A DNA stretch of 55,939 nucleotides from the IMG/VR virus record IMGVR_UViG_2698536620_000014, one strand, 5' to 3'. The position numbers were made by a program, and so were the translations under genes. The stretch comes from a virus (Duplodnaviria; Heunggongvirae; Uroviricota; Caudoviricetes). The notes below the pieces were generated by a model. The model searched no databases. It saw only the letters and a program-made list of their open reading frames with translations, and was not told the origin of the DNA. Shown here piece after piece: positions 1 to 55,563 of the stretch (positions are counted from its first letter, which is position 1; each line of letters opens with the position of its first letter).

Positions 1-1236
1 CTACGATAACCGCGCATTCAACATGGCTACCTGTTCGTCGTTCATGTCATCAATCCACATACCGTAAATTTCATACACCATCTGCGCAGTTTCATGCCCC
101 ATCTGGCTGGCTATAAACGCCGGGTTCGCTCCTGCCGTCAACAGCCAGCAGGCAAAAGTATGCCGCGTATGGTACGGATTACGGCGGCGAATACCAGCAC
201 GTTTTACTGCTGCATTCCATCTCGCACCCAAACTGCTTACCGAGTAATAAGGTTTCTGTTTTCCGTTACACACTCTGGGCATGAAAACAAAATGCAGTTT
301 TTGCTTTTCGGTTCTGCCGTACTCCCGATGATAAAAAGTGATTTCGCTTTTGCGATGATGCCCGGTCAGTTTGTATTGCTCCTTCAGTGCTTCAAGAGCA
401 GGCTGCAGTAGTGTTACCGTCCGGATCCCCGCATTTGTTTTTGGGGGACCGAACATATCCAGTATCGTCAGGTTTCTTCTGACATTCACAACTCCCTTCT
501 CGAAATCCACATCCTCCCACGCCAGAGCAGCCAGTTCCCCGTGACGAAGCCCGGAGTATACGGCAAATTTCCACAAGTTCTGGCTCTGTCCTTTTTCACT
601 TTCCATTAATGCATTGAATTCTGTTTTAGATAACGGGTCAGGCTTTATTCTGTTTCTCTGTAATTTCTTTACTCCTTCAAATGGTTTGGTTGATATAAAT
701 CCCGACTGATACGCAAAACGTAACAACGAACAGAGCAGGGCGATATAGTTATCAACTGTGCGCACGGTTCTTCCTTTTTTGTTGGATCTTGGATTATCCA
801 GGTAAAGCGTTTCTCCATGCAGCAGTTCATTCCGGTAGTTTAAGATATCGCTATAACGAATATGCGATATCGGAGTACTCTCACAAATTATTATCCTGAG
901 TGTTTTTAATTGTGATTTCGTTTTCTTCATTGTGTTTGTTGTTAACTCTGTTTCTTTAATTTTTGTCCAGATATCACAAAGCTCCCCGAACGTTTTTATG
1001 ACCCTCGTTGTCACCATTTTTGCCCCAGTGCTGGACTGGGGAAAACGTCTTAAATACTCAAACTCACCGGAATTGATTTCATGAACTATCAACGCTCTTA
1101 AATTCCCGGCTTTTTTAATGTTACTGTTAGTAACCTCCCAGCCTTTCAATGTTTCCCGACATCGTTTTCCTCGAAACATGAACCAGATGCGAATGTATTT
1201 ACCTCGAATCTCGACACCTGTTGGTAATTTAGACAT
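1..1236 (-). CDS. intR: Phage tyrosine integrase (Rac-type), 411 aa
   Basis: Full-length ORF with stop at 1-3; followed by the Rac early-region gene order (xis, ydaC, ralR, recT, recE). Symbol assigned from context. Confidence 0.85.
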   Translation of the reverse strand: MSKLPTGVEIRGKYIRIWFMFRGKRCRETLKGWEVTNSNIKKAGNLRALIVHEINSGEFEYLRRFPQSSTGAKMVTTRVIKTFGELCDIWTKIKETELTTNTMKKTKSQLKTLRIIICESTPISHIRYSDILNYRNELLHGETLYLDNPRSNKKGRTVRTVDNYIALLCSLLRFAYQSGFISTKPFEGVKKLQRNRIKPDPLSKTEFNALMESEKGQSQNLWKFAVYSGLRHGELAALAWEDVDFEKGVVNVRRNLTILDMFGPPKTNAGIRTVTLLQPALEALKEQYKLTGHHRKSEITFYHREYGRTEKQKLHFVFMPRVCNGKQKPYYSVSSLGARWNAAVKRAGIRRRNPYHTRHTFACWLLTAGANPAFIASQMGHETAQMVYEIYGMWIDDMNDEQVAMLNARLS

Positions 1237-6229: not shown

Positions 6230-6670
6230 AATTATCTCCATTTTTACAAATGAACTTTGTTGATGCGGTGCCTGGTGCCTCCAGGTGACTGCAACCAGTT
6301 AACAATTACAGTCGGCTTTCCCACCCAAACCAATAAGGACTAACATGACTTTTAACTGTGCCACGTGCGCTTAGCCGCATTCACCGCATCACAAAATTCA
6401 CTTTAAAAAGGGCGGACATCAGCCGAACTTCAAGAAAAAAACTGATGCCGCCAGGACTACACACAGCAATGTCGTTATTTACAACCGGAGGCGCACTCCC
6501 ACCATTTAAATTTAACAGACAAGACCGACTCTTTATGGATATCGGAAATGCGCCTTCGTGTTGTGCCCGGTTTTATTTCACCACCTCCGGGCTTCGGTGG
6601 TCTCGGCTATACCCCTACAGCGAGAGCTTGTGTTAACATTTCAATACCCTTACAGTTGAGAGTTATTGAT

Positions 6671-7159
6671 ATGTTGGATGTATTTACTCCATTGTTGAAA
6701 CTTTTTGCTAACGAGCCACTCGAAATACTTATGTATACGATTATCATTTTTGGTCTCACTCTCTGGCTGATACCGAAAGAGTTTACTGTCGCATTCAATG
6801 CTTATACTGAAATACCTTGGCTCTTTCAGATTATCGTTTTTGCCTTTTCTTTCGTGGTCGCCATTTCCTTCTCAAGATTGCGAGCACATATTCAAAAGCA
6901 TTATTCATTACTACCAGAGCAACGAGTATTGCTTCGTTTATCTGAGAAAGAAATCGCTGTATTTAAAGATTTCCTTAAAACAGGAAATCTTATTATCACT
7001 TCTCCTTGCCGTAACCCGGTTATGAAAAAATTAGAACGGAAGGGCATCATTCAACATCAGAGTGATAGCGCAAACTGTTCTTATTATCTCGTCACCGAAA
7101 AATACTCCCATTTTATGAAGTTATTCTGGAACAGCAGGAGTAGACGTTTTAATCGTTAG
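6671..7159 (+). CDS. sieB: SieB superinfection exclusion protein, 162 aa
   Basis: Internal ATG at 6671 (MLDVFTPLLKLFANEPLE...); two hydrophobic helices near the N-terminus. Confidence 0.8.
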   Translation: MLDVFTPLLKLFANEPLEILMYTIIIFGLTLWLIPKEFTVAFNAYTEIPWLFQIIVFAFSFVVAISFSRLRAHIQKHYSLLPEQRVLLRLSEKEIAVFKDFLKTGNLIITSPCRNPVMKKLERKGIIQHQSDSANCSYYLVTEKYSHFMKLFWNSRSRRFNR

Positions 7160-20584: not shown

Positions 20585-20721
20585 AATCTTAACTACAATA
20601 TGATTCATTTTGATGATTGTTTCATAAGGAACAGTGAAGTAAGATCTAAGAGGAGTTAAATTTTATACAGTATAATCATAATATTGCAGCAAGGTGGTTA
20701 TAATTGAAAGAATATTTAGAT

Positions 20722-22179
20722 ATGAATACATCTCATGTAAGAGTTGTTACTCATATGTGTGGGTTCCTGGTTTGGCTCTATAGTCTTTCAATGTTGCCAC
20801 CAATGGTTGTAGCATTGTTTTATAAAGAAAAAAGCCTGTTCGTTTTCTTTATAACTTTCGTTATATTTTTTTGCATTGGTGGCGGAGCGTGGTATACAAC
20901 TAAGAAATCTGGCATTCAATTACGTACCCGTGATGGGTTTATTATAATTGTAATGTTTTGGATTTTGTTTTCTGTTATTAGTGCATTCCCTTTATGGATT
21001 GACTCAGAACTTAATTTAACGTTCATTGATGCTCTGTTTGAAGGGGTTTCTGGAATAACAACAACAGGAGCAACTGTAATTGATGATGTTAGTTCATTAC
21101 CTCGGGCATATTTGTACTATCGGTCACAGTTAAATTTTATAGGTGGTTTAGGAGTTATTGTTCTGGCGGTTGCAGTATTGCCATTATTGGGTATTGGTGG
21201 TGCAAAGCTTTATCAGTCAGAAATGCCGGGGCCATTTAAGGATGACAAACTCACTCCCCGCCTGGCCGATACGTCACGGACACTGTGGATAACTTATTCT
21301 TTATTAGGTATTGCTTGTATTGTCTGTTATAGACTTGCAGGAATGCCTTTGTTTGATGCTATTTGTCACGGGATTTCCACAGTTTCGCTTGGTGGTTTCT
21401 CAACTCATAGCGAGAGTATCGGATATTTTAATAACTATTTGGTTGAGCTGGTGGCTGGTTCTTTTTCCCTGCTATCGGCTTTCAACTTCACTCTTTGGTA
21501 TATTGTTATTAGCAGAAAAACGATAAAACCTTTAATCAGAGATATTGAACTTCGTTTCTTTCTGTTAATAGCCTTAGGGGTGATCATTGTTACCTCTTTC
21601 CAGGTCTGGCATATAGGTATGTATGACTTGCATGGAAGTTTTATTCATTCGTTTTTTCTTGCCAGCTCCATGCTCACTGATAATGGTTTAGCTACGCAGG
21701 ATTATGCAAACTGGCCCACGCACACGATAGTGTTTTTGCTGTTGTCAAGTTTCTTTGGGGGATGTATAGGTTCAACCTGTGGTGGAATTAAGTCACTTCG
21801 ATTTCTTATACTTTTCAAACAAAGCAAACACGAGATAAATCAGCTTTCTCATCCCAGAGCGTTGTTGAGTGTAAATGTAGGAGGGAAGATAGTTACAGAT
21901 CGTGTAATGAGGTCTGTATGGAGTTTCTTTTTTCTTTATACTCTCTTCACGGTGTTTTTTATACTGGTGTTAAATGGTATGGGATATGATTTTCTTACAT
22001 CATTTGCAACAGTGGCTGCATGTATTAATAATATGGGATTAGGTTTTGGGGCTACTGCATCGTCATTCGGAGTGCTTAATGACATTGCAAAATATTTAAT
22101 GTGCATAGCTATGATTCTTGGTCGCCTTGAAATTTATCCTGTTATTATATTGTTTTCAGGTTTTTTTTGGCGCTCCTAA
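20722..22179 (+). CDS. trkG: TrkG potassium uptake protein (TrkH/TrkG family), 485 aa
   Basis: ATG 20722 (MNTSHVRVVTHMCGF...); polytopic membrane protein; same length as the Rac-encoded TrkG of K-12; AT-rich. Confidence 0.9.
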   Translation: MNTSHVRVVTHMCGFLVWLYSLSMLPPMVVALFYKEKSLFVFFITFVIFFCIGGGAWYTTKKSGIQLRTRDGFIIIVMFWILFSVISAFPLWIDSELNLTFIDALFEGVSGITTTGATVIDDVSSLPRAYLYYRSQLNFIGGLGVIVLAVAVLPLLGIGGAKLYQSEMPGPFKDDKLTPRLADTSRTLWITYSLLGIACIVCYRLAGMPLFDAICHGISTVSLGGFSTHSESIGYFNNYLVELVAGSFSLLSAFNFTLWYIVISRKTIKPLIRDIELRFFLLIALGVIIVTSFQVWHIGMYDLHGSFIHSFFLASSMLTDNGLATQDYANWPTHTIVFLLLSSFFGGCIGSTCGGIKSLRFLILFKQSKHEINQLSHPRALLSVNVGGKIVTDRVMRSVWSFFFLYTLFTVFFILVLNGMGYDFLTSFATVAACINNMGLGFGATASSFGVLNDIAKYLMCIAMILGRLEIYPVIILFSGFFWRS

Positions 22180-22316: not shown

Positions 22317-23105
22317 ATGAGCGAGAAATTAAAGATAGTCTATCGCCCATTACAAGAATTGTCACCGTATGCGCACAACGCCAGGACGCACAGTACTGAG
22401 CAGGTGGCACAACTGGTAGAAAGTATTAAGCAATTCGGCTGGACTAATCCGGTGCTGATTGACGAAAAGGGCGAAATTATTGCGGGTCACGGTCGTGTTA
22501 TGGCGGCTGAAATGCTCAAAATGGATTCTGTTCCGGTCATTGTTCTGTCTGGCCTGACGGATGAGCAGAAAAAGGCGTACCGCCTGGCAGATAATCGCCT
22601 GCCGATGAATGCTGGCTGGGATGAAGATCTGTTGCGGATGGAGCTGTCGGACCTAATCAATGCTGATTTTGATGTCTCCCTGACAGGCTTCATCCCGGCA
22701 GAAATTGATGAACTGTTGACGGATGTTTTGCCCGGTACAGGAAATGAGGAGGAGCCGTATACGACGAAAATTGATACGCCTGTTTATGAGCCGTCAGGCG
22801 GTAAACCGGATATCAGTGAACTGTACGACGATACGAAAACTCAGGAGCTGATCAGCCGGATACGTTCGGCGTCCCTTGATCCTGATATTGAGAAATTCCT
22901 CCTGTGTGCAGCAGAACGTCACACGGTGTTTAATTTCAGCAGAATTGCGGACTATTACGCTCATGCCCCCGCTGAAATTCAGTGCCTTTTCGAGGAGTCG
23001 GCGCTGGTGATCATTGATTATCAGCAGGCTATTGAAAATGGATTTGTCCGAATGACGCAGCGCATGGTGGAGATCATGCATGGCGGGGAGGAGGAATATG
23101 CGTGA
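22317..23105 (+). CDS. ParB-like nuclease domain protein, 262 aa (full-length counterpart of the short K-12 ynaK)
   Basis: N-terminal LKIVYRPLQELSPYAHNARTHS...IIAGHGRVMAA is a ParB/Srx-type motif. Confidence 0.75.
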   Translation: MSEKLKIVYRPLQELSPYAHNARTHSTEQVAQLVESIKQFGWTNPVLIDEKGEIIAGHGRVMAAEMLKMDSVPVIVLSGLTDEQKKAYRLADNRLPMNAGWDEDLLRMELSDLINADFDVSLTGFIPAEIDELLTDVLPGTGNEEEPYTTKIDTPVYEPSGGKPDISELYDDTKTQELISRIRSASLDPDIEKFLLCAAERHTVFNFSRIADYYAHAPAEIQCLFEESALVIIDYQQAIENGFVRMTQRMVEIMHGGEEEYA

Positions 23106-24030
23106 TGATTTTTGCGCCTTTATTCTGACTCACGGGCGACCGGACAAAGTTCTGACTTACCGGACGTTGCGTCGTGCTGGCTATACCGGGAAAATTTTTA
23201 TCGTTGTTGATGATGAAGATAAGACACGGCATCAGTACATGGCTGAATTTGGTGAACAGGTGCTGGTATTTTCCAAAGCCGATATTGCTAGTCGTTTTGA
23301 CGAAGCCGATAATTTTAGTGACCGCCGCTCAATTTTTTACGCCCGTAATGCCTGTTTCGACCAGGCAAAACTGGTCGGGTGTAAATACTTCATTCAGCTC
23401 GATGATGATTATCACGAGTTCCAGTTTCGGGTGGATCGCAACTATGACCAGGCCTATTTCCCGATAAGGAAACTGGATGAGATCCTTTCTGAAATGCTTG
23501 CGTACTACGAATCAATACCTGCTCTTTCCATCGCTATGTCGCAGGGCGGGGATTTTCTTGGTGACAATGGCGGCCATGCTTCGTGGGTGAAACGCAAGGC
23601 AATGAACAGCTTTATCTGTTCGGTTGATCGACCGTTCTCATTCATGGGGCGCATTAACGAGGATGTGAATACGTACACGAATCTCGGTCGCTGTGGTGAA
23701 TTGTTTATGACGATCGGTGCTGTCCAGTTAGGGCAGAAACAGACGCAGAAAAACAGCGGCGGAATGACCGAGCTGTATCTGGATTCCGGAACCTACGTTA
23801 AAAGTTTTTACTCCGTCATGTATGCGCCGTCGTGCGTAAAAATCTCACTTATGGGTGCCAGTCATAAACGCATTCACCATCAGGTCACCTGGAACAACGC
23901 TGCAGTAAAAATCCTTCACGAAAAATACAGGAAGAAGACACCCTGCATATCAATGGGGGTGACAAATGATTCCGTATTCGAAAGTCGAGTCTCTGGCAGC
24001 GTGCCGGATGACTGCACAACAAATCGCTGA
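23098..24030 (+). CDS. YdaY-like protein, unknown function, 310 aa
   Basis: ATG 23098 after GGAGGAGG; acidic DDD-containing segments (FIVVDDEDK, IQLDDDYHEF); paired with the ParB-like gene upstream of terminase. Confidence 0.6.
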   Translation: MRDDFCAFILTHGRPDKVLTYRTLRRAGYTGKIFIVVDDEDKTRHQYMAEFGEQVLVFSKADIASRFDEADNFSDRRSIFYARNACFDQAKLVGCKYFIQLDDDYHEFQFRVDRNYDQAYFPIRKLDEILSEMLAYYESIPALSIAMSQGGDFLGDNGGHASWVKRKAMNSFICSVDRPFSFMGRINEDVNTYTNLGRCGELFMTIGAVQLGQKQTQKNSGGMTELYLDSGTYVKSFYSVMYAPSCVKISLMGASHKRIHHQVTWNNAAVKILHEKYRKKTPCISMGVTNDSVFESRVSGSVPDDCTTNR

Positions 24031-44750: not shown

Positions 44751-44761
44751 GTGGGGTGAAT

Positions 44762-46542
44762 ATGGCAGTAAAGATTTCAGGTGTACTGAAAGACGGCACA
44801 GGAAAACCGGTACAGAACTGCACAATCCAGCTGAAAGCAAAACGTAACAGCACCACGGTGGTGGTGAACACGCTGGCCTCAGAAAATCCGGATGAAGCCG
44901 GGCGTTACAGCATGGACGTTGAGTACGGTCAGTACAGCGTTATTCTGTTGGTGGAAGGATTCCCGCCGTCACATGCCGGGACCATCACCGTGTATGAAGA
45001 TTCCCGACCCGGTACGCTGAATGATTTTCTCGGTGCCATGACGGAGGATGATGCCCGTCCGGAGGCTCTGCGCCGTTTTGAACTGATGGTGGAAGAGGTG
45101 GCGCGTAACGCGTCCGCGGTGGCACAGAACACGGCAGCCGCGAAGAAGTCAGCCAGTGATGCCGGCACATCTGCCCGTGAGGCGGCAACCCATGCGACTG
45201 ATGCTGCAGGCTCAGCGCGTGCAGCCAGCACGTCAGCCGGACAGGCCGCGACTTCGGCTCAGGAGGCGTCTTCCAGCGCAGGAACGGCATCAACAAAGGC
45301 CACTGAAGCATCAAAAAGTGCTGCCGCTGCAGAGTCCTCAAAAAGCGCGGCGGCCACCAGTGCCGGTGCGGCGAAAACGTCAGAAACGAATGCTGCAGCG
45401 TCACAAAAATCAGCAGCCACTTCTGCATCCACTGCGACAACGAAAGCGTCAGAAGCCGCCACTTCAGCCAGAGATGCGGCGGCCTCCAAAGAGGCGGCAA
45501 AATCATCAGAAACGAACGCCTCCACAAGCGCCAGCAGTGCAGCCTCCTCGGCAACGGCGGCAGGAAATTCCGTGAAGGCGGCAAAAACGTCCGAGACGAA
45601 TGCTAAGTCTTCTGAAACGGCAGCGGAACAGAGCGCCTCAGCTGCGGCAGACTCTGAGACAGCAGCTGCATCATCGGCCCGTGAGGCGTCCATTAAGGCA
45701 GAGGAGGCAGCAGTCAGTGCCACCGCCGCCGGAAAATCGGCAGAAAGCGCCGCATCATCCGCTTCAACAGCCACAACGAAGGCTGGCGAAGCCACTGAAC
45801 AGGCCAGCGCAGCAGCGAGGTCTGCTTCCGCAGCGAAGACATCCGAAACGAACGCGAAAGCGTCGGAAACCAGCGCAGAATCCTCAAAAACGGCTGCCGC
45901 ATCGTCCGCCAGTTCGGCGGCGTCATCGGCATCATCTGCGTCTGCTTCAAAAGATGAGGCGACCAGACAGGCGTCAGCAGCGAGGGGCAGCGCCACGACG
46001 GCATCCACGAAGGCGACAGAGGCTGCTGGCAGTGCGGCAGCGGCAGCACAGAGCAAAAGTACGGCGGAATCCGCGGCAACGCGCGCCGAGACAGCAGCAA
46101 AACGGGCAGAGGATATTGCATCCGCCGTGGCGCTTGAGGATGCGAGCACGACGAAAAAGGGGATAGTACAGCTCAGCAGTGCGACCAACAGCACTTCCGA
46201 GTCACAGGCGGCAACGCCAAAAGCCGTTAAGGCCGCGTATGACCTGGCTAACGGGAAATACACCGCACAGGATGCAACGACAGCACAAAAAGGAATTGTC
46301 CAGCTCAGTAGTGCAACCAACAGCACATCTGAAACGCTTGCTGCGACACCGAAAGCAGTGAAAGCAGCTAATGACAATGCGAATGGTCGGGTACCTTCTG
46401 CCCGTAAGGTGAATGGTAAGGCGCTTTCAGCGGATATAACACTGACGCCGAAAGATATTGGTACGCTTAACTCAACAACAATGTCATTCAGCTATGCAGG
46501 AGACAAGAATCGCCAGCTGACCCGTTACAGCGATACCCGCTG
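44762..46542 (+). other. Side tail fibre gene, diverged 5' copy; reading frame runs into lom-derived sequence and a contig junction
   Basis: ATG 44762; near-identical to the N-terminus of the stf at 46814 for about the first 130 codons, then diverges in the Ala/Ser/Thr repeat region; after ...LNSTTMS (46486) the sequence is the 56-57 nt lom segment also found at 44302-44358, then a single N. Confidence 0.5.
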
Positions 46543-46749
46543 GNTCGCGTAACTGACAACAAGGGGAAAACGCACGATGTGCTGACCGGAAGTGATGACG
46601 GTCGCCACAGCAACACGTCTCTGGCGTGGGGAGCTGGCGTGCAGTTTAACCCGACCGAATCCGTGGCCATTGATATTGCTTATGAAGGCTCCGGCAGTGG
46701 CGACTGGCGCACTGACGGTTTCATCGTGGGTGTCGGTTATAAATTCTGA
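46487..46749 (+). other. Second partial copy of the lom 3' region (contains single-N contig join at 46543)
   Basis: Matches 44302-44358 and 44494-44697 of the first lom copy with at least one substitution; about 136 nt of the first copy is absent at the N. Confidence 0.5.
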
Positions 46750-46802: not shown

Positions 46803-46813
46803 GTGGGGTGAAT

Positions 46814-49800
46814 ATGGCAGTAAAGATTTCAGGTGTACTGAAAGACGGCACAGGAAAACCGGTACAGAACTGCACAATCCAGCTGAAAGCAAAACGTAAC
46901 AGCACCACGGTGGTGGTGAACACGCTGGCCTCAGAAAATCCGGATGAAGCCGGGCGTTACAGCATGGACGTTGAGTACGGGCAGTACAGCGTTATTCTGT
47001 TGGTGGAGGGATTCCCGCCGTCACATGCCGGGACCATCACCGTGTATGAAGATTCCCGACCCGGTACGCTGAATGATTTTCTCGGTGCCATGACGGAGGA
47101 TGATGCCCGTCCTGAGGCACTGCGCCGCTTTGAACTGATGGTGGAAGAGGTGGCGCGTAACGCGTCCGCGGTGGCACAGAACACGGCAGCCGCGAAGAAA
47201 TCAGCCAGCGATGCCAGCACATCAGCCCGTGAGGCGGCAACCCGTGCGACTGATGCTGCAGGCTCAGCACGAGCAGCCAGCACGTCAGCCGGACAGGCCG
47301 CTTCGTCGGCTCAGTCTGCGTCTTCCAGCGCAGGAACGGCATCAGCAAAGGCCACTGAAGCATCAAAAAGTGCTGCCGCTGCAGAGTCCTCAAAAAGCGC
47401 GGCGGCCACCAGTGCCGGTGCGGCGAAAACGTCAGAAACGAATGCGGCAGCGTCACAACAATCAGCTGCCACTTCTGCATCCACCGCGACCACGAAAGCG
47501 TCAGAAGCAGCCACCTCAGCCAGAGATGCGTCGGCTTCAAAAGAGGCGGCAAAATTATCAGAAACGAGCGCAGCTTCGAGCGCCAGTAATGCCGCTTCCT
47601 CGGCAACGGCGGCAGGAAATTCCGCGAAGGCGGCAAAGACGTCTGAGACAAACGCTAAGTCCTCTGAAACGGCAGCAGCACAGAGTGCCTCCGCAGCAGC
47701 AGGCTCAAAAACAGCGGCTGCGTCGTCTGCCAGTGCAGCGTCAACAAGTGCCGGGCAGGCCTCAGCCAGTGCTAGCGCCGCCGGAAAATCGGCAGAAAGC
47801 GCCGCATCGTCCGCTTCAACAGCCACAACGAAGGCTGGCGAAGCCACTGAACAGGCCAGTGCAGCAGCGAGGTCTGCTTCCGCAGCGAAGACATCGGAGA
47901 CGAACGCGAAAGCGTCGGAGACCAGCGCAGAATCCTCAAAAACGGCTGCCGCATCGTCCGCCAGTTCGGCGGCGTCATCGGCATCATCGGCGTCTGCTTC
48001 AAAAGATGAGGCGACCAGACAAGCGTCCGCAGCGAAGGGCAGCGCCACGACAGCATCCACGAAGGCGACAGAGGCTGCTGGCAGTGCGACGGCGGCAGCA
48101 CAGAGCAAAAGTACGGCGGAATCCGCGGCAACGCGCGCCGAGACAGCGGCAAAACGTGCAGAGGATATTGCATCCGCCGTGGCGCTTGAGGATGCGAGCA
48201 CGACGAAAAAGGGGATAGTACAGCTCAGTAGTGCGACTAATAGCACGTCTGAAACGCTGGCGGCAACGCCAAAGGCAGTAAAAGCAGCCAATGACAATGC
48301 TGAGAAACGTCTGCAGAAAGACCAGAACGGCGCTGATATACCCGATAAGGGACGCTTCCTGAACAACATTAACGCGGTCAGTAAAACAGACTTTGCTGAT
48401 AAGCGTGGTATGCGTTATGTGCGGGTTAACGCTCCTGCAGGTGCAACATCTGGAAAATATTACCCTGTTGTTGTTATGCGTTCTGCTGGCTCAGTAAGCG
48501 AACTGGCATCAAGGGTCATTATCACCACGGCAACGCGAATCGCAGGCGATCCGATGAATAACTGCGAGTTTAACGGATTTGTTATGCCTGGTGGCTGGAC
48601 TGACAGGGGGCGTTATGCTTATGGAATGTTCTGGCAATATCAAAACAATGAACGAGCCATCCACTCAATAATGATGAGTAATAAGGGCGATGATTTGCGC
48701 TCTGTGTTCTATGTTGATGGCGCTGCTTTCCCTGTTTTTGCGTTTCTCGAAGATGGCCTGTCAATATCCGCACCTGGTGCTGATCTCGTTGTTAATGATA
48801 CGACCTATAAGTTTGGGGCAACAAATCCGGCGACTGAATGTATCGCGGCGGACGTTATCCTTGATTTTAAGAGTGGGCGTGGTTTTTATGAGTCTCATTC
48901 GTTAATCGTTAACGATAACTTGTCGTGCAAAAAACTTTTTGCCACAGACGAAATTGTAGCGCGTGGTGGTAATCAGATTCGAATGATAGGTGGGGAGTAT
49001 GGTGCATTATGGCGTAATGATGGCGCTAAAACTTACCTGCTGCTTACCAATCAAGGTGATGTTTATGGTGGCTGGAATACATTAAGACCGTTTGTTATTG
49101 ATAACGCAACCGGCGAACTGGTTATTGGAACCAAACTGTCTGCAAGTCTGAACGGTAACGCATTGACAGCAACAAAGCTGCAAACGCCAAGACTGGTTTC
49201 TGGTGTTGAGTTTGATGGTTCCAAAGATATTACTTTAACCGCCGCGCATGTGGCTGCTTTTGCCAGAAGGGCAACGGATACATATGCCGATGCGGATGGT
49301 GGCGTTCCATGGAATGCCGAATCAGGCGCTTACAATGTCACCCGCTCTGGCAACAGCTATATTCTGGTTAACTTCTATACCGGAGTCGGAAGTTGCCGGA
49401 CCTTGCAGATGAAGGCGCATTACAGAAATGGTGGTCTGTTCTACCGTTCTTCAAGAGACGGTTATGGTTTTGAGGAAGACTGGGCAGAAGTTTATACCTC
49501 GAAAAATCTTCCACCAGAAAGCTACCCAGTCGGTGCACCAATCCCGTGGCCATCAGATACCGTTCCGTCTGGTTATGCCCTGATGCAGGGACAGACTTTT
49601 GACAAATCTGCTTACCCGAAACTTGCAGCCGTTTATCCGTCAGGTGTGATCCCTGATATGCGTGGCTGGACGATTAAGGGCAAACCTGCCAGTGGTCGGG
49701 CCGTATTGTCTCAGGAACAGGACGGCATTAAATCGCATACCCACAGCGCCAGCGCATCCAGTACGGATTTGGGGACGAAAACCACATCGTCGTTTGATTA

Positions 49801-50212
49801 CGGCACTAAATCCACGAATAACACTGGTGCGCATACCCATAGTTTAAGTGGCAGCACGAATGCAGCTGGTAATCACAGCCATAGAGATGGCCGTCGATTT
49901 AACCCCAGTGTTTTTAAAGATACTTATCAATATGGTTATACAAGCTCAGGTCAAAATACCTGGGGTGTACAAGGCTCAGTAGGTATGTCTACGGGGTGGT
50001 TAGCGAATACCAGTACAGATGGTAATCATAGCCACTCACTGTCCGGCACAGCAGCATCTGCAGGTGCACACGCGCATACTGTCGGTATTGGTGCTCATAC
50101 GCACTCCGTTGCGATTGGTTCACATGGACATACCATCACCGTTAACGCTGCGGGTAACGCGGAAAACACCGTCAAAAACATCGCATTTAACTATATTGTG
50201 AGGCTTGCATAA
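46814..50212 (+). CDS. stfR: Side tail fibre protein (StfR-like), about 1132 aa
   Basis: ATG 46814 after GGGGTG; long Ala/Ser/Thr-rich repeat region; His-rich C-terminus (GAHTHSLSG...GNHSHSLSG...[24 protein letters not shown]) typical of fibre tips; followed by tfa. Confidence 0.85.
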
Positions 50213-50796
50213 TGGCATTCAGAATGAGTGAACAACCACGGACCATAAAAATTTATAATCTGCTGACCGGAACTAATGAATTTATTGGTGAAGGTGACGC
50301 ATATATTCCGCCTCATACAGGTCTGCCAGCAAACAGTACCTATATTGCACCGCCAGATATTCCGGCTGGCTTTGTGGCTGTTTTCAACAGTGATGAGGCA
50401 TCGTGGCATCTCGTTGAAGACCATCGGGGTAAAACGGTTTATGACGTAGCGTCAGGGGACGCGTTATTTATTTCTGAACTCGGTCCGTTACCGGAAAATG
50501 TTACCTGGTTATCCCCGGAAGGGGAATATCAGAAGTGGAACGGTACAGCTTGGGTGAAAGATGCAGAAGCAGAAAAACTATTCCGGATCCGGGAGGCGGA
50601 AGAAACAAAAAACAGCCTGATGCAGGTAGCCAGTGAGCATATTGCGCCGCTTCAGGATGCTGCAGATCTGGAAATCGCAACGGAGGAAGAAACCTCGTTG
50701 CTGGAAGCCTGGAAAAAGTATCGGGTGTTGCTGAACCGTGTTGATACATCAACTGCACCTGATATTGAGTGGCCTGCGGTCCCTGTTATGGAGTAA
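50212..50796 (+). CDS. tfaR: Tail fibre assembly protein (Tfa), 194 aa
   Basis: ATGG overlap with the stf stop; size and position of lambdoid Tfa. Confidence 0.85.
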
Positions 50797-50908
50797 TCGT
50801 TTTGTGATATGCCGCAGCAACTTGTCATGGCAGGATACTGCGGCTGATTTGTGAATTTAAATAGTGTGTTTATTGCTTTATATATAAAGGATTTAATGGA
50901 TTACATAT

Positions 50909-52279
50909 CTATGATATCCCTGAAATGTCCTCTTCAAGCTCTTTTACTGATTTCGCAATTTTAAATTTAAATTTTCTCTCTATTTCACTATTGCTAAGTT
51001 TTTTTTCATTCTCTTTCCCTATCCACATAGAAACAATTTCTCGTTTCTGAGATATATGTAGATTGTCAAAGTTAGGTATGTATTTAAAAGTCTCCGCTCT
51101 ACCCCTGCGGAGTTCATAGAAAGTTTTAATCAAAGACTTTGGTTTTATTTCTGATGAAAGGCCGAATCGGCGGATAAGATTATTGATCGTATGATTAACA
51201 GCTCGAAGTTGAGCTGTTGACGTTATTTGTGAGAAGTACGATACCCATCCCAATCGTTTACCTTCAAACACACATCCCGTAATTCTAAGATTTAGTTTCC
51301 ACTGACAATATGCAACAGCTCGTTCTTTATCGCGCTTATTTTTAGCTTGTAGTAGAGCGTGTCTATATGCAGTAAAAATTTTTGCTAAGGATGACTCAAA
51401 TCTAAGAATGCTCTCATGTTTTATCAATAATTCTCGATTTTTTATGTGGTAGCCCAAAAAGTTGAAACTTTCATCCAAGCTGCCTACTTTGGATTTTGAG
51501 TTCTCTTCATTTAATGGATGTGGGTTTAAATTTAATGATTGAAGCTTATCAATGATATGAGAAGCTATTTTTGTTGCTTGATATTTTGGTGTTAAAATAA
51601 GAATGTCATCAACGTATCGCATGTACCATATGTCATGCATTTTATTGATTTCATCATCGAAATTAGATAGTGATATTTCAGCTAAAATGTTTGATATCGC
51701 TAATCCCTGAGGTACTCCTCTGGTATTATTAGGGATACCTTTGCTTCCTGTGGTTCCACTTACAGTAGGCACGATTAATGATGATGTTATTAACTGTCTA
51801 ATTTCTTTTTTTCTAATTTTATTTTTTATTGCATTAATTATCAATTTATGTTCAATTGAAGGATAGAAACTTTTAAGATCTATTTTTGCATATTCAGCAT
51901 ATAGACTGTTGTTTAATGCTTCTTTCAATGAGTCAATTACTGTATGTGGTAGTTTTAATCTGGACTTAGGATATATTTCCGTAAGGCATTCACAGAGAGC
52001 TCTAAGAGTAATTCTGTCCCTAGCAGTTGGTATGGAAATCTGTCTGGGTGTAGAGTTAGCGCCTTTAGATATTAATTTTTCTTTATATGCTGTAAATTTG
52101 TAATTGCCAGAATTAACCTTTTCAAAAATGAAAGTGATCTCATTTTTTATTGTCAAATCAAGTTTTGATGGGCGAATCCGATCTATGCCAATCGCTCCTG
52201 ATTCTTTGATTTTTTCAGAGTATACTTTTAGAAGATTTTTTTTCGAGAATGACTTTTTAAAAATTCTGCTTGCAGTCAT
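50909..52279 (-). CDS. Reverse transcriptase (defence-associated type: retron-like or UG/Abi-like), 456 aa
   Basis: RT motifs in translation: KIDLKSFYPSI, GVPQGLAISNILAEISL, YMRYVDDILIL (YxDD active site), FNFLGYHI. ATG at 52277-52279 lies 23 nt inside the upstream membrane-protein ORF. AT-rich. Confidence 0.85.
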   Translation of the reverse strand: MTASRIFKKSFSKKNLLKVYSEKIKESGAIGIDRIRPSKLDLTIKNEITFIFEKVNSGNYKFTAYKEKLISKGANSTPRQISIPTARDRITLRALCECLTEIYPKSRLKLPHTVIDSLKEALNNSLYAEYAKIDLKSFYPSIEHKLIINAIKNKIRKKEIRQLITSSLIVPTVSGTTGSKGIPNNTRGVPQGLAISNILAEISLSNFDDEINKMHDIWYMRYVDDILILTPKYQATKIASHIIDKLQSLNLNPHPLNEENSKSKVGSLDESFNFLGYHIKNRELLIKHESILRFESSLAKIFTAYRHALLQAKNKRDKERAVAYCQWKLNLRITGCVFEGKRLGWVSYFSQITSTAQLRAVNHTINNLIRRFGLSSEIKPKSLIKTFYELRRGRAETFKYIPNFDNLHISQKREIVSMWIGKENEKKLSNSEIERKFKFKIAKSVKELEEDISGIS

Positions 52280-52808
52280 AGTCAATCCAAAGATATATTA
52301 ATGGGAGTATATAAAGTGCGGCAGTAATAAATATTCGAAGTAATATCCATAAAATAACAATTATTTTTTCTTTTTGTGTGGGGATCCTCGTCTTAAGTCC
52401 AACTTGAGTTACCCTTGAAATTTTATCATCTATGTCACGGTGATTCTCAACCTCATTGAGCAAATTAAAATATTTTTCTTTCTGTTCAAGAGATAACTGT
52501 TGACTGGTGGTAATGTCAAAATAGAGTCGCTGTAGTGCAATATAATTCCTTCTCATGGCTATTGCTCGACCACGAAAATCTAGGTTAGATACGATCAGAG
52601 AAATACCCAGTAGAGCCACTGAAAGTATCGCCGCAACGACATCTGTATTATCTCCTAGAACCTTTGGAAATCGCAACGTTACAATTGAAAGTACCGCACT
52701 CAATATAGCATACCAAACGAGGATAAATTGAGAGTGTTTTTCAAGCCATTCTAGTCGATGGTGCGCTTGGATACGTGCTTTATATGTAAACCAAATATTG
52801 TCATGCAT
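52257..52808 (-). CDS. Multi-pass membrane protein co-transcribed with the RT (candidate effector), 183 aa
   Basis: ATG 52806-52808 after AAGGA; hydrophobic helices LVWYAILSAVLSIVTL, VVAAILSVALLGISLIVSNL and IIVILWILLRIFITAALYILPLIYLW. Confidence 0.7.
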   Translation of the reverse strand: MHDNIWFTYKARIQAHHRLEWLEKHSQFILVWYAILSAVLSIVTLRFPKVLGDNTDVVAAILSVALLGISLIVSNLDFRGRAIAMRRNYIALQRLYFDITTSQQLSLEQKEKYFNLLNEVENHRDIDDKISRVTQVGLKTRIPTQKEKIIVILWILLRIFITAALYILPLIYLWIDYDCKQNF

Positions 52809-53030
52809 AAAAGATCCTTTTTAAAAGCGGAAGGGGCAGGATATATTGGAACCGTTGAACATCCTGCCCGGCAGGATCAGTGAGCATAAGCTCAACAGTA
52901 AAATATTACTGTTCATTATCAGAGCCGCCCTTGCATGCGCAAGAGGAAAAACCTGCCCCATCCCTTTGAATTATTACAATTTAATGATCTTAAAGTCAAT
53001 ACAAGTGAATGGTGTCCAGAGATGATGAAC
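52809..53030 (-). ncRNA. Structured non-coding region upstream of the membrane-protein/RT operon (candidate RT-associated ncRNA or operator)
   Basis: Four copies of a GGGCAGGAT-type arm in alternating orientation (52833-52842, 52861-52869, 52870-52877, 52952-52959) plus a small cttgc-atgc-gcaag hairpin (52930-52943); no ORF. Confidence 0.3.
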
Positions 53031-53279
53031 TTAATGAACAAACCACTCGTCAGCAGACTCCCAGGTATCTTTCAGAGTCTCCTGAACAAAAGTTTTAGCT
53101 GAATCTTTATCAGCGGTGCGCGTAACAGAAAGGCCATCGTTGCTGGTGGCTTTTACGATCACTTCTACATCGTCATAACGTTTACTGATGCGTCGGGTTA
53201 ATTCTTCCTTTAACGCATCCACAGCACCGGTTGGCATTTTAGTCATTTTTTCTTTGGCTATGCAGATTTCAATACGCAT
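53031..53279 (-). CDS. DinI-like protein, 82 aa
   Basis: [35 protein letters not shown]...[17 protein letters not shown] resembles E. coli DinI as I recall it. Confidence 0.8.
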
Positions 53280-53339
53280 AAAAGTCCCCTACACTGTATT
53301 TGTATACAGTATTATTTTTAACTGTATGGATAAACAGTG

Positions 53340-54437
53340 TCAAGAGGTCTTATTTCTGCTCCTTTGGAGTTCTTCAAAACGATTATGTAAAGATTTCGGA
53401 TACAGTTCGGTATATACCTGCCATAGCACGTTTAATGAACGATGCCCTGTAACCTGAGCGACTTCCTCAATACTAAAACCAGCCTCAAATAAGCGACTTG
53501 CCCCTTCTCTACGCAAATCATGGTATCTCAGATCTTTAATACCTAATTTGCTTCTTACCCTCTGAAATCCTGCGGTAACAGAAGTGCTGTTATATGGAAA
53601 AATGAATTCTGATTTTTTGGGTTGTCGCTGGACGATATCCCAGGCTTCCCCAAGCAAGGCAACTTTCATATGGTTGCCTTCCTTTTTACGTGGATCTTTC
53701 CTGTCTCTTACTAGTATAGATTTTTGTTCCTGGTCGAGATCTTCCCATCGTAACCGGCATACTTCTCCGATTCGCATACAGGACCACACAGAAAATTTGA
53801 GGATATCAACGAACGGAATTTTTGAGCATTTATGAGTAGATCGTTGTTGAAGGCCTTCAATGAGCATGTTCAGTTCATCAGATGCTGGTCTACGATTACG
53901 ACGGTTTGATTTACCAATCAAACCGAGTTTAAGTAGATATGGACGAGCGCTTTTCGCCGGGTTTGATGTGTAATTGATTCCGTATACAGGTTTTGCCGCA
54001 TCCAGAACACTGCCAAGATAACTAACATCGTGGCTGACTGTTGCTGGGCCTGCACCAGCGTTGTTTCTTAGCCTGCAATGTTCAATTACGTCATTTTCTG
54101 TCAGTTCAGATAGTTTGATCGCGGAGATGTCACTATCCATAAGCAGTTCCAGCACATATCTTTTAGTACGGCCTGCTTTACCTCCGGCATTTGGGTCATT
54201 TAAATATTTGTGTAGTAAGTCACGGACTGTAAGTCCGTCAACAGCATTTGATGATGGAATGCCATATAGATCTAATTCCATCACTTTCTGTGCGCCCCAT
54301 GTTTTGGCATGAGCATGTTTAGGGAATGTTTTGCTTTCCCTGTAAGTGATAACACCTTTTTCTTTGATAATCACATTACAGCGATAGCGTGGTGTGCCAT
54401 CGGATTTTAGTCGTTTCTCTATGTTATAGTACGCCAT
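53340..54437 (-). CDS. Tyrosine integrase adjacent to dusA (candidate DusA-associated integrase), 365 aa
   Basis: C-terminal catalytic region with HDLRREGASRLFEAGFSIEEVAQVTGHRSLNVLWQVY (H-x-x-R ... Y); divergent from dusA with an 88-bp spacer. Confidence 0.85.
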   Translation of the reverse strand: MAYYNIEKRLKSDGTPRYRCNVIIKEKGVITYRESKTFPKHAHAKTWGAQKVMELDLYGIPSSNAVDGLTVRDLLHKYLNDPNAGGKAGRTKRYVLELLMDSDISAIKLSELTENDVIEHCRLRNNAGAGPATVSHDVSYLGSVLDAAKPVYGINYTSNPAKSARPYLLKLGLIGKSNRRNRRPASDELNMLIEGLQQRSTHKCSKIPFVDILKFSVWSCMRIGEVCRLRWEDLDQEQKSILVRDRKDPRKKEGNHMKVALLGEAWDIVQRQPKKSEFIFPYNSTSVTAGFQRVRSKLGIKDLRYHDLRREGASRLFEAGFSIEEVAQVTGHRSLNVLWQVYTELYPKSLHNRFEELQRSRNKTS

Positions 54438-54525: not shown

Positions 54526-55563
54526 ATGCACGATAATCCTGAAACACAGAAAACTAATCAAACCAGCGTGATGCCTGAAAAAACTGGCGCTTACTGGAGT
54601 TCTCGGTTTAGCATTGCTCCTATGCTCGACTGGACGGACAGACATTGCCGCTATTTCTTGCGTCTGCTTTCCCGCAATACGTTGCTGTATACCGAAATGG
54701 TGACCACAGGGGCGATTATTCACGGTAAAGGTGATTACCTGGCGTACAGTGAAGAAGAACATCCGGTAGCGTTGCAACTCGGCGGTAGCGATCCGGCGGC
54801 GCTGGCACAGTGTGCGAAGCTGGCAGAAGCGCGTGGATATGATGAGATCAACCTGAATGTCGGCTGCCCGTCTGACCGGGTGCAGAACGGCATGTTTGGT
54901 GCGTGTCTGATGGGTAATGCGCAGCTGGTTGCCGACTGCGTGAAAGCGATGCGCGATGTGGTGTCGATTCCAGTGACGGTGAAAACGCGTATTGGCATCG
55001 ATGACCAGGACAGCTATGAATTTCTCTGCGATTTCATCAACACCGTTTCCGGCAAAGGCGAGTGTGAGATGTTTATCATCCACGCACGTAAAGCCTGGCT
55101 TTCGGGGTTAAGCCCGAAAGAAAACCGTGAAATCCCGCCACTCGATTATCCGCGTGTGTATCAACTGAAGCGTGACTTTCCGCATCTGACAATGTCGATT
55201 AACGGTGGTATCAAGTCGCTGGAAGAGGCCAAAGCACACCTGCAACATATGGATGGCGTGATGGTCGGGCGCGAGGCGTATCAGAATCCGGGTATTCTGG
55301 CGGCGGTAGACCGGGAGATCTTTGGTTCCTCGGATACCGATGCCGATCCGGTGGCGGTAGTGCGCGCCATGTATCCGTACATTGAGCGTGAACTCAGCCA
55401 GGGGACGTATCTCGGCCATATTACCCGGCATATGTTGGGCTTGTTCCAGGGTATTCCTGGCGCGCGGCAGTGGCGGCGTTATTTAAGTGAAAATGCCCAT
55501 AAAGCGGGTGCAGACATTAATGTGCTGGAACACGCGCTCAAACTGGTGGCGGATAAGCGTTAA
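54526..55563 (+). CDS. dusA: tRNA-dihydrouridine synthase A, 345 aa
   Basis: Dus-family core with [22 protein letters not shown]...[14 protein letters not shown]...; host housekeeping gene. Confidence 0.9.

Follow-up and report, generated by a model that had tools for sequence, protein, structure and literature searches.

A likely intact Eco3-type DRT10 reverse transcriptase system carried as cargo in a lambdoid prophage at dusA

The window analysed here, a stretch of 55,939 nucleotides of caudoviral DNA to which all positions refer, contains a reverse transcriptase (RT) gene that overlaps the gene of a small membrane protein, and the question raised by this pair is to which class of RT system it belongs. 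An earlier note, made from the letters alone, read it as a defence-type RT system with a small, coupled membrane effector, which proved right, and left its class uncertain between a retron, a UG/Abi-type RT and an unclassified arrangement. We consider the locus to be, with a probability of about 0.93, an intact anti-phage system of the DRT10 (UG17-A) family and Eco3 type, borne as cargo by a lambdoid prophage at dusA, where it lies between the tail-fibre assembly gene tfa and the integrase gene. The DRT10 assignment is made because an RT, a SLATT protein and a non-coding RNA (ncRNA) occur together (Table 1). DRT10 has been described in three papers in 2025–2026 (Tang et al, 2025, PMC12632851; Sanchez-Nieto et al, 2026, bioRxiv 10.64898/2026.04.29.721553; Ramirez et al, 2026, bioRxiv 10.64898/2026.06.29.735271), according to which the RT repeatedly copies a short RNA template into repeat DNA and acts with a membrane protein. 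The system found here belongs to an already known, published family, is complete, and as an allele is almost identical to the main model system; family, architecture, ncRNA, template logic, priming residue and cryo-EM structure have all been published. The locus thus falls cleanly into a characterised DRT type, an outcome under which the earlier note had itself said that it should count as known rather than novel. What is read directly from this particular locus is its set of parts, the conserved structure and the residues; activity and defence are predicted from close alleles. Identity with the tested Eco3 construct (OKX54664) is suggested by the coordinates and the template motif; OKX54664 was not among the 15 listed of the 954 members of the protein cluster.

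Table 1. Features of the DRT10 locus, in window coordinates.
Feature	Position	Strand	Basis
UG17 (DRT10) RT gene, 456 aa	50909..52279	-	PADLOC RT_UG17, Pfam RVT_1, PGAP start
Ser456 codon, last residue, predicted protein-priming nucleophile	50912..50914	-	invariant in alignment A1
YVDD catalytic box, residues 222–225	51605..51616	-	invariant in 23 homologues
SLATT_5 effector gene (putative effector), 183 aa	52257..52808	-	Pfam, NCBIfam and PADLOC profiles, hydropathy
DRT10 ncRNA, 137 nt (Eco3 numbering, nt n = 52964 - n)	52827..52963	-	fold, covariation, covariance model
Realignment segment A', nt 116–119, 5'-CAAU-3'	52845..52848	-	Eco3 numbering
Template A–B, nt 107–115, 5'-CAACGGUUC-3'	52849..52857	-	positional homology with Eco3 CAAUGAUUC
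Sigma-70-type ncRNA promoter: TTGACT, 18-nt spacer, TG-extended AATAAT	52970..52999	-	promoter scan

The reverse transcriptase and its membrane partner

The RT reading frame with its YVDD box, as first reported, is confirmed. On the minus strand the frame is open over 50909–52285, beginning with a TTG; in identical E. coli loci PGAP starts instead at the in-frame ATG at 52279, which gives the 456-residue protein. The longer product of 458 residues, from the TTG, matches the misannotated start of the Eco3 RT OKX54664 described by Ramirez et al (2026). The PADLOC RT_UG17 profile matches over its full length (model positions 1–429 of 429, E = 1.1e-158, 526.6 bits), about 400 bits ahead of the runner-up PADLOC model, Drt3a (130 bits, E ~3e-38), membership of the UG17 clade of UG/Abi Class 2 being judged by such profile scores. 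With a full-length UG17 RT beside a SLATT_5 protein and an ncRNA, the labels of uncertain class and unclassified arrangement were wrong, and the suggestion of a UG/Abi-type RT rather than a retron was the correct one. Pfam RVT_1 covers residues 74–281 of the 458-residue form (7e-21), so that the N-terminal extra residues number about 72, close to the 80 or so first given, but those at the C-terminus about 175 rather than about 100.

Another UG/Abi system with a SLATT accessory, for example DRT3 (UG3 with UG8) or an unnamed UG group, might give a similar picture, given that Drt3a is the second-best profile (3.2e-38 in PADLOC, 2.7e-32 in NCBIfam) and that DRT3 loci can carry SLATT. The NCBIfam Drt3a score, however, is 113 bits against a cut-off of 200; DRT3 needs both UG3 and UG8 (Drt3a and Drt3b) and an ncRNA templating poly(dTdG), whereas there is a single RT gene here, with an ncRNA and template that agree base for base with DRT10. 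Such a system is highly improbable.

A search of the PDB with the RT sequence, in a set without DRT10 entries, gave group II intron RTs as the best matches, and the solved folds closest to the RT model are those of the G2L4 and GsI-IIC RTs, with DRT9 also among the best and retron RTs distant. These nearest folds, together with a match to TIGR04416 (4.5e-42), would be expected of a group II intron maturase or group II-like RT, whether mobile or domesticated. The fold is, however, common to all bacterial RTs and the PDB set compared held no DRT10 structures, the TIGR04416 score is 144 bits against a cut-off of 300, and the Rfam scan of 50700–53400 gave no group II intron RNA domains. Since the RT gene, moreover, has a translationally coupled SLATT gene and a conserved ncRNA of non-intron type as its partners, we give this explanation hardly any credence.

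The residues on which DRT10 activity depends can be found in the RT. S456, R371, K385 and Y388 are, like the catalytic box, invariant across the 23 homologues of alignment A1. Changing YVDD to YVAA kills defence in published DRT10 systems, and experiments on Eco3 have identified S456 as the residue that primes synthesis (DRT10 papers including Tang et al, 2025). In the AF2 model of the RT a long helix spans residues 430–453 and is followed by a low-confidence flexible tail. Judged from sequence and model, the active site and the C-terminal hydroxyl priming residue after a conserved helix are present as in DRT10.

The upstream reading frame had been described as encoding two to three hydrophobic helices and nothing else recognisable. 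The helices stand, a Kyte–Doolittle scan placing three hydrophobic segments at approximately residues 27–46, 56–77 and 148–175, but the protein is clearly recognisable as SLATT_5, with matches to Pfam SLATT_5 (1.3e-28, 100 bits, cut-off 29.5), NCBIfam SLATT_5 (8.5e-40, 136 bits, cut-off 60) and PADLOC RTasSLATT (1.5e-56). No solved relative of it was found in a PDB sequence search. The coordinates confirm that the ATG of the RT lies 23 nt inside this frame (52279 − 52257 + 1), as had been stated, and an overlap is conserved elsewhere, being 23 nt in Xenorhabdus and 4 nt in Pseudomonas. In the published UG17-A systems the SLATT gene predominantly precedes the RT gene, its stop overlapping the RT start (Sanchez-Nieto et al, 2026).

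It is this combination of an RT with a small membrane protein that resembles retrons with 2TM effectors, in which the RT would use an msr/msd RNA to produce msDNA and would restrain the membrane protein as a toxin; a weak match to NCBIfam retron_St85_RT (6.8e-16) and the presence of retron RTs among the distant structural matches point the same way. The retron profile nevertheless scores only 58 bits against a cut-off of 235 and against 527 bits for RT_UG17, and the partner, SLATT_5, is specific to UG17. At the RNA level no Rfam retron RNA was seen at E up to 1 over 50700–53400, and the RNA present has five stem-loops in a conserved scaffold and carries its 9-nt template internally, whereas a retron would have an msr/msd pair flanked by inverted repeats. 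The retron-like reading fails on the profile and RNA evidence, and its probability is close to nil.

The non-coding RNA and its template

A functional RNA had been suspected in the gap at 52809–53030, and the suspicion is borne out by a structured RNA of 137 nt with covariation and a promoter. Its layout is a basal stem SL1, SL2, loop A (nt 40–51), SL3, SL4, SL5 (nt 87–103) and loop B (nt 104–123), with a minimum free energy of −59 kcal/mol (z = −3.6). In its length, its place just upstream of SLATT and its shape, with smaller stem-loops set on a central stem, it agrees with the DRT10 ncRNAs of about 137–143 nt. In an alignment of 25 sequences the 32 pairs are formed in 98.1% of cells, compared with approximately 50% for slid partners; compensatory changes are seen in 18 of the 32, and none of 500 shuffles reached the observed score. 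A covariance model made only from homologues of other genera, with the window left out, finds 52822–52962 (116.7 bits, E = 9.6e-29) as its sole significant match within the 55.9-kb window. The Eco3 positions U43, G44, G86, G104, U105–U106, C107, G111, C116 and A120–U123 all fall on matching bases. A 46-residue reading frame (52821–52961) lies over the ncRNA and was considered as coding; it was discarded, the homologues showing stem-compensating changes and, in the loops, indels of lengths not divisible by three.

Nothing on the ncRNA was found in a scan of 50700–53400 with Rfam 15 at E up to 1, and there would therefore seem to be no Rfam family yet for the DRT10 ncRNA. The only Rfam hits in that interval were a partial IS009 inside tfa and a chance microRNA. 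The promoter has 10 of 12 matches plus the TG extension, with the −10 hexamer ending 7 nt before nt 1 of the ncRNA, and −10 boxes such as TGTAGAAT or TGTAAGAT are seen at the same distance in homologues from other genera. According to the DRT10 papers the ncRNA is independently transcribed.

The A–B–A' segments of the window read CAA(C)-GGUUC-CAA(U) over nt 107–119, in the loop directly 3' of SL5, and in 22 of 25 homologues a (U)CAA...(U)CAA pattern lies at the same place in the loop. According to Tang et al (2025), initiation on the Eco3 ncRNA takes place at C116. From the window template, CAACGGUUC-CAAU, the predicted product is therefore protein-primed (GAACCGTTG)n DNA from the C-terminal Ser456. 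Relative to Eco3 there are two substitutions in the template, U110C and A112G, so that the repeat is predicted to be GAACCGTTG as opposed to GAATCATTG. The exact Eco3 template, CAAUGAUUC-CAAU, is carried by two sister E. coli alleles (L047 and L048), in which RT and SLATT are 98% identical to those of the window (445 of 456 RT residues identical to an Eco3-template allele, with about 11 differing, and 179 of 183 SLATT residues, with 4 differing).

Segments A (CAAC) and A' (CAAU) match exactly over 3 nt, compared with 4 nt in Eco3, and the fourth position would pair as a dG:rU wobble upon realignment. Tang et al (2025) found a 3-nt A–A' homology to be enough, with changes of the fourth base and single substitutions in segment B tolerated. 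U110C and A112G also extend an upstream GUUC...GUUC homology and so create an alternative register, GUUC-AACG-GUUC, that could support a period of 8 nt. Because of the 3-nt homology and this second register the product could differ from the predicted 9-nt repeat. The 8-nt register itself, which would give (CGTTGAAC)n, is disfavoured: it is seen in only 5 of 25 homologues, Eco3 also has a UUC...UUC there that is unused, and the published 5' boundary is C107, with U105–U106 as an uncopied linker. The substituted positions are, in addition, mutually complementary around G111 (AAU-G-AUU in Eco3, AAC-G-GUU in the window), forming a quasi-palindrome in the template (pairs 108/114, 109/113 and 110/112), to which little weight was given because it is not conserved across the family and segment-B substitutions are tolerated (Tang et al, 2025).

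The three-of-four match between CAAC and CAAU might also mean that the locus, although intact in sequence, does not work in its strain, the template allele being unfit for repeat addition; alternatively the system could be silenced, as the AT-rich stretch might be a target of H-NS. However, reading frames, promoter, stems and catalytic and priming residues are all intact, the published 3-nt A–A' homology is sufficient (Tang et al, 2025), and the same template is found in 154 of 188 E. coli carriers as well as in Xenorhabdus and Photorhabdus. A non-working DRT10 is therefore very unlikely.

Those carriers were counted among complete genomes, where CAACGGUUC is the majority form and CAAUGAUUC accounts for the other 34 of 188. 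A minor new point is thus that in nature the Eco3 template, the one studied, is the less common allele. Whether the natural alleles differ meaningfully in the sequence, length or precision of the repeat, with the dimorphism of the template under selection rather than neutral, is a more speculative matter, and we think it doubtful; were it true, the allele difference could matter for sensitivity to ExoI, for foldback or second-strand priming, for recognition by SLATT and for escape by phage counter-defence.

Prophage setting and distribution

The unit is AT-rich, as had been noted, with a GC content of 0.31–0.37 over 50800–52600 compared with approximately 0.47–0.55 on the flanks. The neighbours named at the outset are also correct, comprising a DinI gene (53031–53279, Pfam 1e-19), a tyrosine integrase (53340–54437) and dusA (54526–55563). 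They do not form a free-standing small island, however, the DRT10 unit lying between tfa and int of a Rac-like lambdoid prophage of approximately 54 kb that fills the window. The DinI-ncRNA-SLATT-RT block is found beside tail-fibre genes in prophages at at least three chromosomal sites, and of the three types of prophage examined two have the tail-fibre assembly gene immediately next to it. Seventeen complete E. coli genomes contain an identical locus, and the RT protein recurs unchanged on 732 contigs. A phage collection gave no match to the DRT10 module. A functional link between DinI and DRT10, in which DinI would temper RecA activation by the single-stranded DNA product, was rejected as a general feature because DinI, Int and Tfa lie next to the system in the E. 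coli loci alone, all 44 loci of other genera lacking them as neighbours.

The locus is of practical use for annotation: for the E. coli loci examined, RefSeq gives the two genes no names beyond 'reverse transcriptase domain-containing protein' and 'SLATT domain-containing protein', and none of the 30 records listed has an annotated feature beneath the ncRNA.

Predicted mechanism and comparison with known systems

The way in which the system would operate can be set out from the features above and from close alleles. The 137-nt ncRNA with its five stem-loops is predicted to be made from its own promoter and would be bound by the RT; in published DRT10 cryo-EM structures there are two RT monomers per RNA. 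By analogy with close alleles the RT would prime DNA from the hydroxyl of its own Ser456, opposite C116, and copy nt 115 to 107, halting at the boundary set by SL5, whereupon the new 3' end would realign to the downstream CAAU and the cycle would repeat. The result would be long single-stranded tandem repeats, predicted to be (GAACCGTTG)n, covalently attached to the RT, and in infection the host ExoI (SbcB) and phage single-stranded DNA-binding proteins would alter the level or form of this DNA. The translationally coupled SLATT protein is the putative effector, probably acting through membrane damage that leads to abortive infection. The steps from RNA binding by the RT to the effects of ExoI and the phage proteins have been shown experimentally for close DRT10 alleles in the three DRT10 papers. 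In these papers repeat DNA has been shown for Eco1, Eco2, Eco3, six further homologues and E3659, and defence requiring RT, SLATT and ncRNA for published homologues; the two experimental groups disagree as to whether the cDNA goes up or down upon infection.

The closest known system is Eco3DRT10 (Tang et al, 2025; Ramirez et al, 2026), with which the locus shares the order ncRNA-SLATT-RT, an RT of 456 residues ending in Ser456 and containing R371, K385 and Y388, and the same upstream TTG that gives rise to the misannotated 458-residue form. The ncRNAs are alike in their 137 nt and five stem-loops, with a GC-rich SL1 and an AT-rich SL3, in the 12-nt loop A with U43 and G44, in G86 and G104 flanking SL5 and the U105–U106 linker, and in the 9-nt template at nt 107–115 followed by A' at nt 116–119. 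The difference lies in U110C/A112G, with GAACCGTTG and not GAATCATTG as the predicted repeat and three rather than four A/A' matches. The DRT10 of Escherichia sp. E3659 (Sanchez-Nieto et al, 2026), another lineage within UG17-A, has the same tripartite ncRNA-SLATT-RT organisation, but its ncRNA of 143 nt is drawn with six stem-loops, its repeat is the 7-nt AGTAATA and its SLATT stop abuts the RT start. In E3659 all three parts are needed, tandem-repeat cDNA is made constitutively, the system is toxic without SbcB, and a phage SSB-like protein is the trigger (Sanchez-Nieto et al, 2026).

More distantly, DRT9 (UG28) is also a Class 2 UG RT with a similar ncRNA scaffold and protein-primed, RNA-templated repetitive DNA, but it makes poly-dA from a U-tract, primes from internal tyrosines and forms hexamers, and the two are not alike in SLATT dependence. 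Retrons with 2TM effectors likewise combine an RT, an ncRNA and a small membrane effector and are thought to act through abortive infection, but differ in RT clade, RNA architecture and product, and prime from the 2'-OH of a branching G where DRT10 uses a serine hydroxyl. Telomerase (TERT and telomerase RNA) works in the same manner as DRT10, adding repeats processively from a short template inside its RNA that is bounded on the 5' side by a structured element and accompanied by an alignment segment; homology to telomerase is a phylogenetic claim made by the authors of the DRT10 work. Telomerase is much larger, extends chromosome 3' ends in place of a protein primer and serves genome maintenance as opposed to phage defence, and what makes DRT10 remarkable is that it is a compact telomerase-like bacterial enzyme in the service of immunity.

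Class of the reverse transcriptase and its partner

The unit is a DRT10 defence system and as such already known, where the earlier note had left its class uncertain; assignment to a characterised DRT type is one of the outcomes which that note had named as refuting its reading. The RT matches the PADLOC model RT_UG17 over the entire model (E 1.1e-158, 527 bits), with Drt3a second-best among the PADLOC models at 130 bits, and falls far under the curated NCBIfam cut-offs for group II maturase, Drt3a, Drt2 and retron St85, so that the class of the RT is settled by profile searches. The 183-residue protein, said in that note to hold nothing recognisable beyond its helices, is SLATT_5 by Pfam (100 bits), NCBIfam (136 bits) and the PADLOC model RTasSLATT (1.5e-56), and has three hydrophobic segments in a Kyte-Doolittle scan. 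Of the first reading, the defence RT, its membrane effector and the RNA in the adjoining gap thus stand, while the UG17 and SLATT_5 profiles remove an unclassified arrangement and a retron, the latter rejected with the St85 model well below its cut-off. ORFs, GC content and profiles also bore out the observed RT ORF, YVDD box, neighbouring genes and AT-richness (GC 0.31-0.37 across the RT and SLATT genes against about 0.5 on both sides). The ATG start of the RT is the one chosen by PGAP in E. coli loci 100% identical to the RT-SLATT stretch.

Mestre et al. 2022 (PMC9226505) listed UG17 RTs that have SLATT partners; these were later named DRT10 and dissected by Tang et al. 2025 (PMC12632851), Sanchez-Nieto et al. 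2026 (bioRxiv 10.64898/2026.04.29.721553) and Ramirez et al. 2026 (bioRxiv 10.64898/2026.06.29.735271). According to these three papers the module order is ncRNA, SLATT, RT, with an overlap of SLATT stop and RT start in the arrangement that predominates, UG17-A; the window shows it too, the RT beginning 23 nt within the SLATT ORF.

An AlphaFold2 model of the RT (pLDDT 85) has the expected right-hand fold, with a long C-terminal helix (430-453) followed by a floppy tail carrying Ser456. In a PDB set without DRT10 structures the closest solved folds were the group II-like RTs G2L4 and GsI-IIC, DRT9, DGR and DRT2.

Features of the module, its ncRNA (nt 1 = 52963, Eco3 numbering) and the surrounding prophage
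Feature	Position	Strand	Remarks
Integrase	1-1236	-	tyrosine integrase, phrog_1, beside RecT/RecE
SieB	6548-7159	+	superinfection exclusion, Pfam 3e-31, early region
TrkH-family cation transporter	20704-22179	+	491 aa, Pfam 1e-144, between lysis and packaging genes
Overlapping gene pair	22317-23105, 23080-24030	+, +	directly upstream of terminase
Consecutive tail-fibre genes	44756-46552, 46808-50212	+, +	second 1134 aa, with long low-complexity Ala/Ser/Thr-rich stretch
Tail-fibre assembly gene (Tfa)	50212-50796		flanks unit
Partial Rfam IS009 match	50700-50753	+	49.9 bits, gathering score 117; model positions 146-199
RT ORF	50909-52279	-	456 aa from in-frame ATG 52279; 458 codons from TTG 52285
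YVDD catalytic box	51605-51616	-	RT residues 222-225
SLATT ORF	52257-52808	-	183 aa, upstream of RT
ncRNA	52827-52963	-	
ncRNA promoter	52999-52970	-	TG-extended sigma-70: TTGACT, 18 nt, AATAAT
DinI gene	53031-53279		flanks unit
Tyrosine integrase	53340-54437	-	flanks unit, by dusA
dusA	54526-55563		flanks unit
U43, G44	ncRNA		within 12-nt loop A
G86, G104	ncRNA		either side of SL5
U105-U106	ncRNA		5' linker
C107 to C115	ncRNA		9-nt template
G111	ncRNA		sole G of Eco3 template
C116-U119	ncRNA		A' realignment segment
A120-U123	ncRNA		3' linker

The ncRNA upstream of SLATT

The 222-nt gap 52809-53030, which had been suggested for an RNA search, holds a structured ncRNA, as judged from its promoter, fold and covariation. 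The promoter ends 7 nt ahead of the G at 52963, and the 160 nt downstream fold at -59 kcal/mol (z = -3.6) into a GC-rich basal stem, four more hairpins and two single-stranded loops. Among 44 loci with relatives of the RT, taken from GTDB representative genomes, the element lies upstream of SLATT in all 26 with an RT at least 50% identical (Xenorhabdus, Photorhabdus, Buttiauxella, Pseudomonas, Stutzerimonas, Stenotrophomonas and Bordetella). An alignment of 25 sequences gave a consensus of 32 pairs, 18 of them with both-sided changes, and 98.1% of cells paired, a share that fell to 49-63% on sliding the 3' partners by 1-3 columns; none of 500 shuffles reached the observed covariation score. 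A covariance model built from 24 sequences, the window excluded, found a single significant match in the whole window, at 52822-52962 (-) (116.7 bits, E 9.6e-29). Rfam 15 has no family for the DRT10 ncRNA, and no annotated feature covers it in the 30 E. coli records listed.

Prophage context

A single Rac-like lambdoid prophage takes up essentially the whole window. After the first integrase come RecT, RecE and SieB, then genes for replication and a TrkG-like transporter, followed by terminase, portal, the major head protein, the tape measure, J, a pair of tail-fibre genes and finally Tfa. Between Tfa and the second integrase, the one abutting dusA, are the module and DinI. With an integrase at either end, the element may be a recombinant or tandem arrangement. 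Strain O25b:H4 has a prophage of about 42 kb in which no integrase but the dusA-side one is annotated, which places the module in an accessory region between tail-fibre genes and integrase. The DinI-ncRNA-SLATT-RT block stands beside prophage tail-fibre genes at three or more E. coli chromosomal sites, namely dusA (loci L048 and L001), prfC (L047) and yecD/aspS (L046), the last two with no annotated integrase adjoining it. The module moves with the tail end of lambdoid prophages and not with the dusA integrase. None of the loci of other genera has DinI, the dusA-side integrase or Tfa nearby, so this linkage belongs to the prophage setting in E. coli rather than to the system itself. In a set of 5,426 complete genomes of E. 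coli, 197 have the RT-SLATT stretch, every time on the chromosome, and 188 of the 197 have the ncRNA; the phage collection gave no match to the module.

The tail-fibre gene adjoining the module is 3405 nt long in the window and 3024 nt in O25b:H4, and the region is therefore mosaic. The IS009 match, in the 3' end of Tfa, is ended by the edge of the searched stretch. Rac similarly carries a TrkH-family transporter, trkG. The pair upstream of terminase comprises a ParB_N-domain protein, with a further match to the PADLOC model for a type II methyltransferase (1.5e-38), and a TET-associated glycosyltransferase (Pfam TAGT, 4e-34), and possibly forms a module for hypermodification of phage DNA. SieB is a second anti-phage function of this prophage.

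Relation to Eco3DRT10 and its template

With nt 1 set at 52963, all nucleotides named in the papers on Eco3DRT10, the E. coli model system, fall on the correct base. The last RT residue is Ser456, the priming residue identified by experiment in Eco3 (PMC12632851), and R371, K385 and Y388, which anchor SL5 and SL1 in Eco3 (DRT10 papers), are present and invariant in 23 homologues. Ramirez et al. (bioRxiv 10.64898/2026.06.29.735271) point out a misannotation of the Eco3 RT, entered as OKX54664 with two N-terminal residues too many and so as a 458-aa protein; the TTG ORF of the window is lengthened in just this way.

By homology with the three DRT10 papers, the RT would bind the ncRNA, one pseudo-symmetric RNA holding two monomers. 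The loop B monomer would begin synthesis at Ser456 opposite C116 and copy to C107, stopping at an SL5-defined boundary, whereupon the cDNA 3' end would re-pair with A' for a new cycle; loop A would give just a short abortive product. The product would be kilobase-long ssDNA repeats covalently attached to the RT, predicted from the template CAACGGUUC to be (GAACCGTTG)n. Segments A (CAAC) and A' (CAAU) have three bases in common, which suffice according to Tang et al., who found changes of the fourth tolerated (PMC12632851); here the fourth position would pair as a dG:rU wobble. In 22 of 25 homologues the same loop position has a (U)CAA...(U)CAA pattern. A second register for copying, GUUC-AACG-GUUC, exists in the window and four other homologues of the 25, but needs read-through of the U105-U106 linker, uncopied in Eco3. 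The steps downstream of copying are less settled: SLATT is needed as the effector and ExoI (SbcB) restrains the product (DRT10 papers); a phage SSB-like protein is able to trigger one homologue (bioRxiv 10.64898/2026.04.29.721553).

The exact Eco3 template, CAAUGAUUC-CAAU, is found in loop B of two E. coli alleles, NCCP12480 (prfC) and CFIAFB20190172 (dusA), whose RT and SLATT are identical to those of the window at 445/456 and 179/183 residues. The window ncRNA departs from that of the closer allele, CFIAFB20190172, by G7A, which lies outside the structure, and by two template changes, U110C and A112G, three positions in all. The coordinates and this sister-allele template, rather than the Eco3 sequence itself, strongly suggest that the locus is an allele of Eco3DRT10. 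The two template differences lie symmetrically on either side of G111 and preserve its flanking complementarity (U110/A112 to C110/G112); the symmetry is not conserved across the wider family, defence is not abolished by single substitutions in Eco3 segment B (PMC12632851), and the pattern deserves little weight.

The remaining value of the locus lies in annotation and in a survey of template alleles. Searched as exact words, 33-mers with the template (window 52845-52857 (-) with A') at their centre split the 188 E. coli ncRNA carriers cleanly, with none left over, into 154 with CAACGGUUC, a form also found in Xenorhabdus and Photorhabdus, and 34 with CAAUGAUUC. The Eco3 template is therefore, as newly found here, the minority form among E. 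coli carriers, and the laboratory model a minority natural allele.
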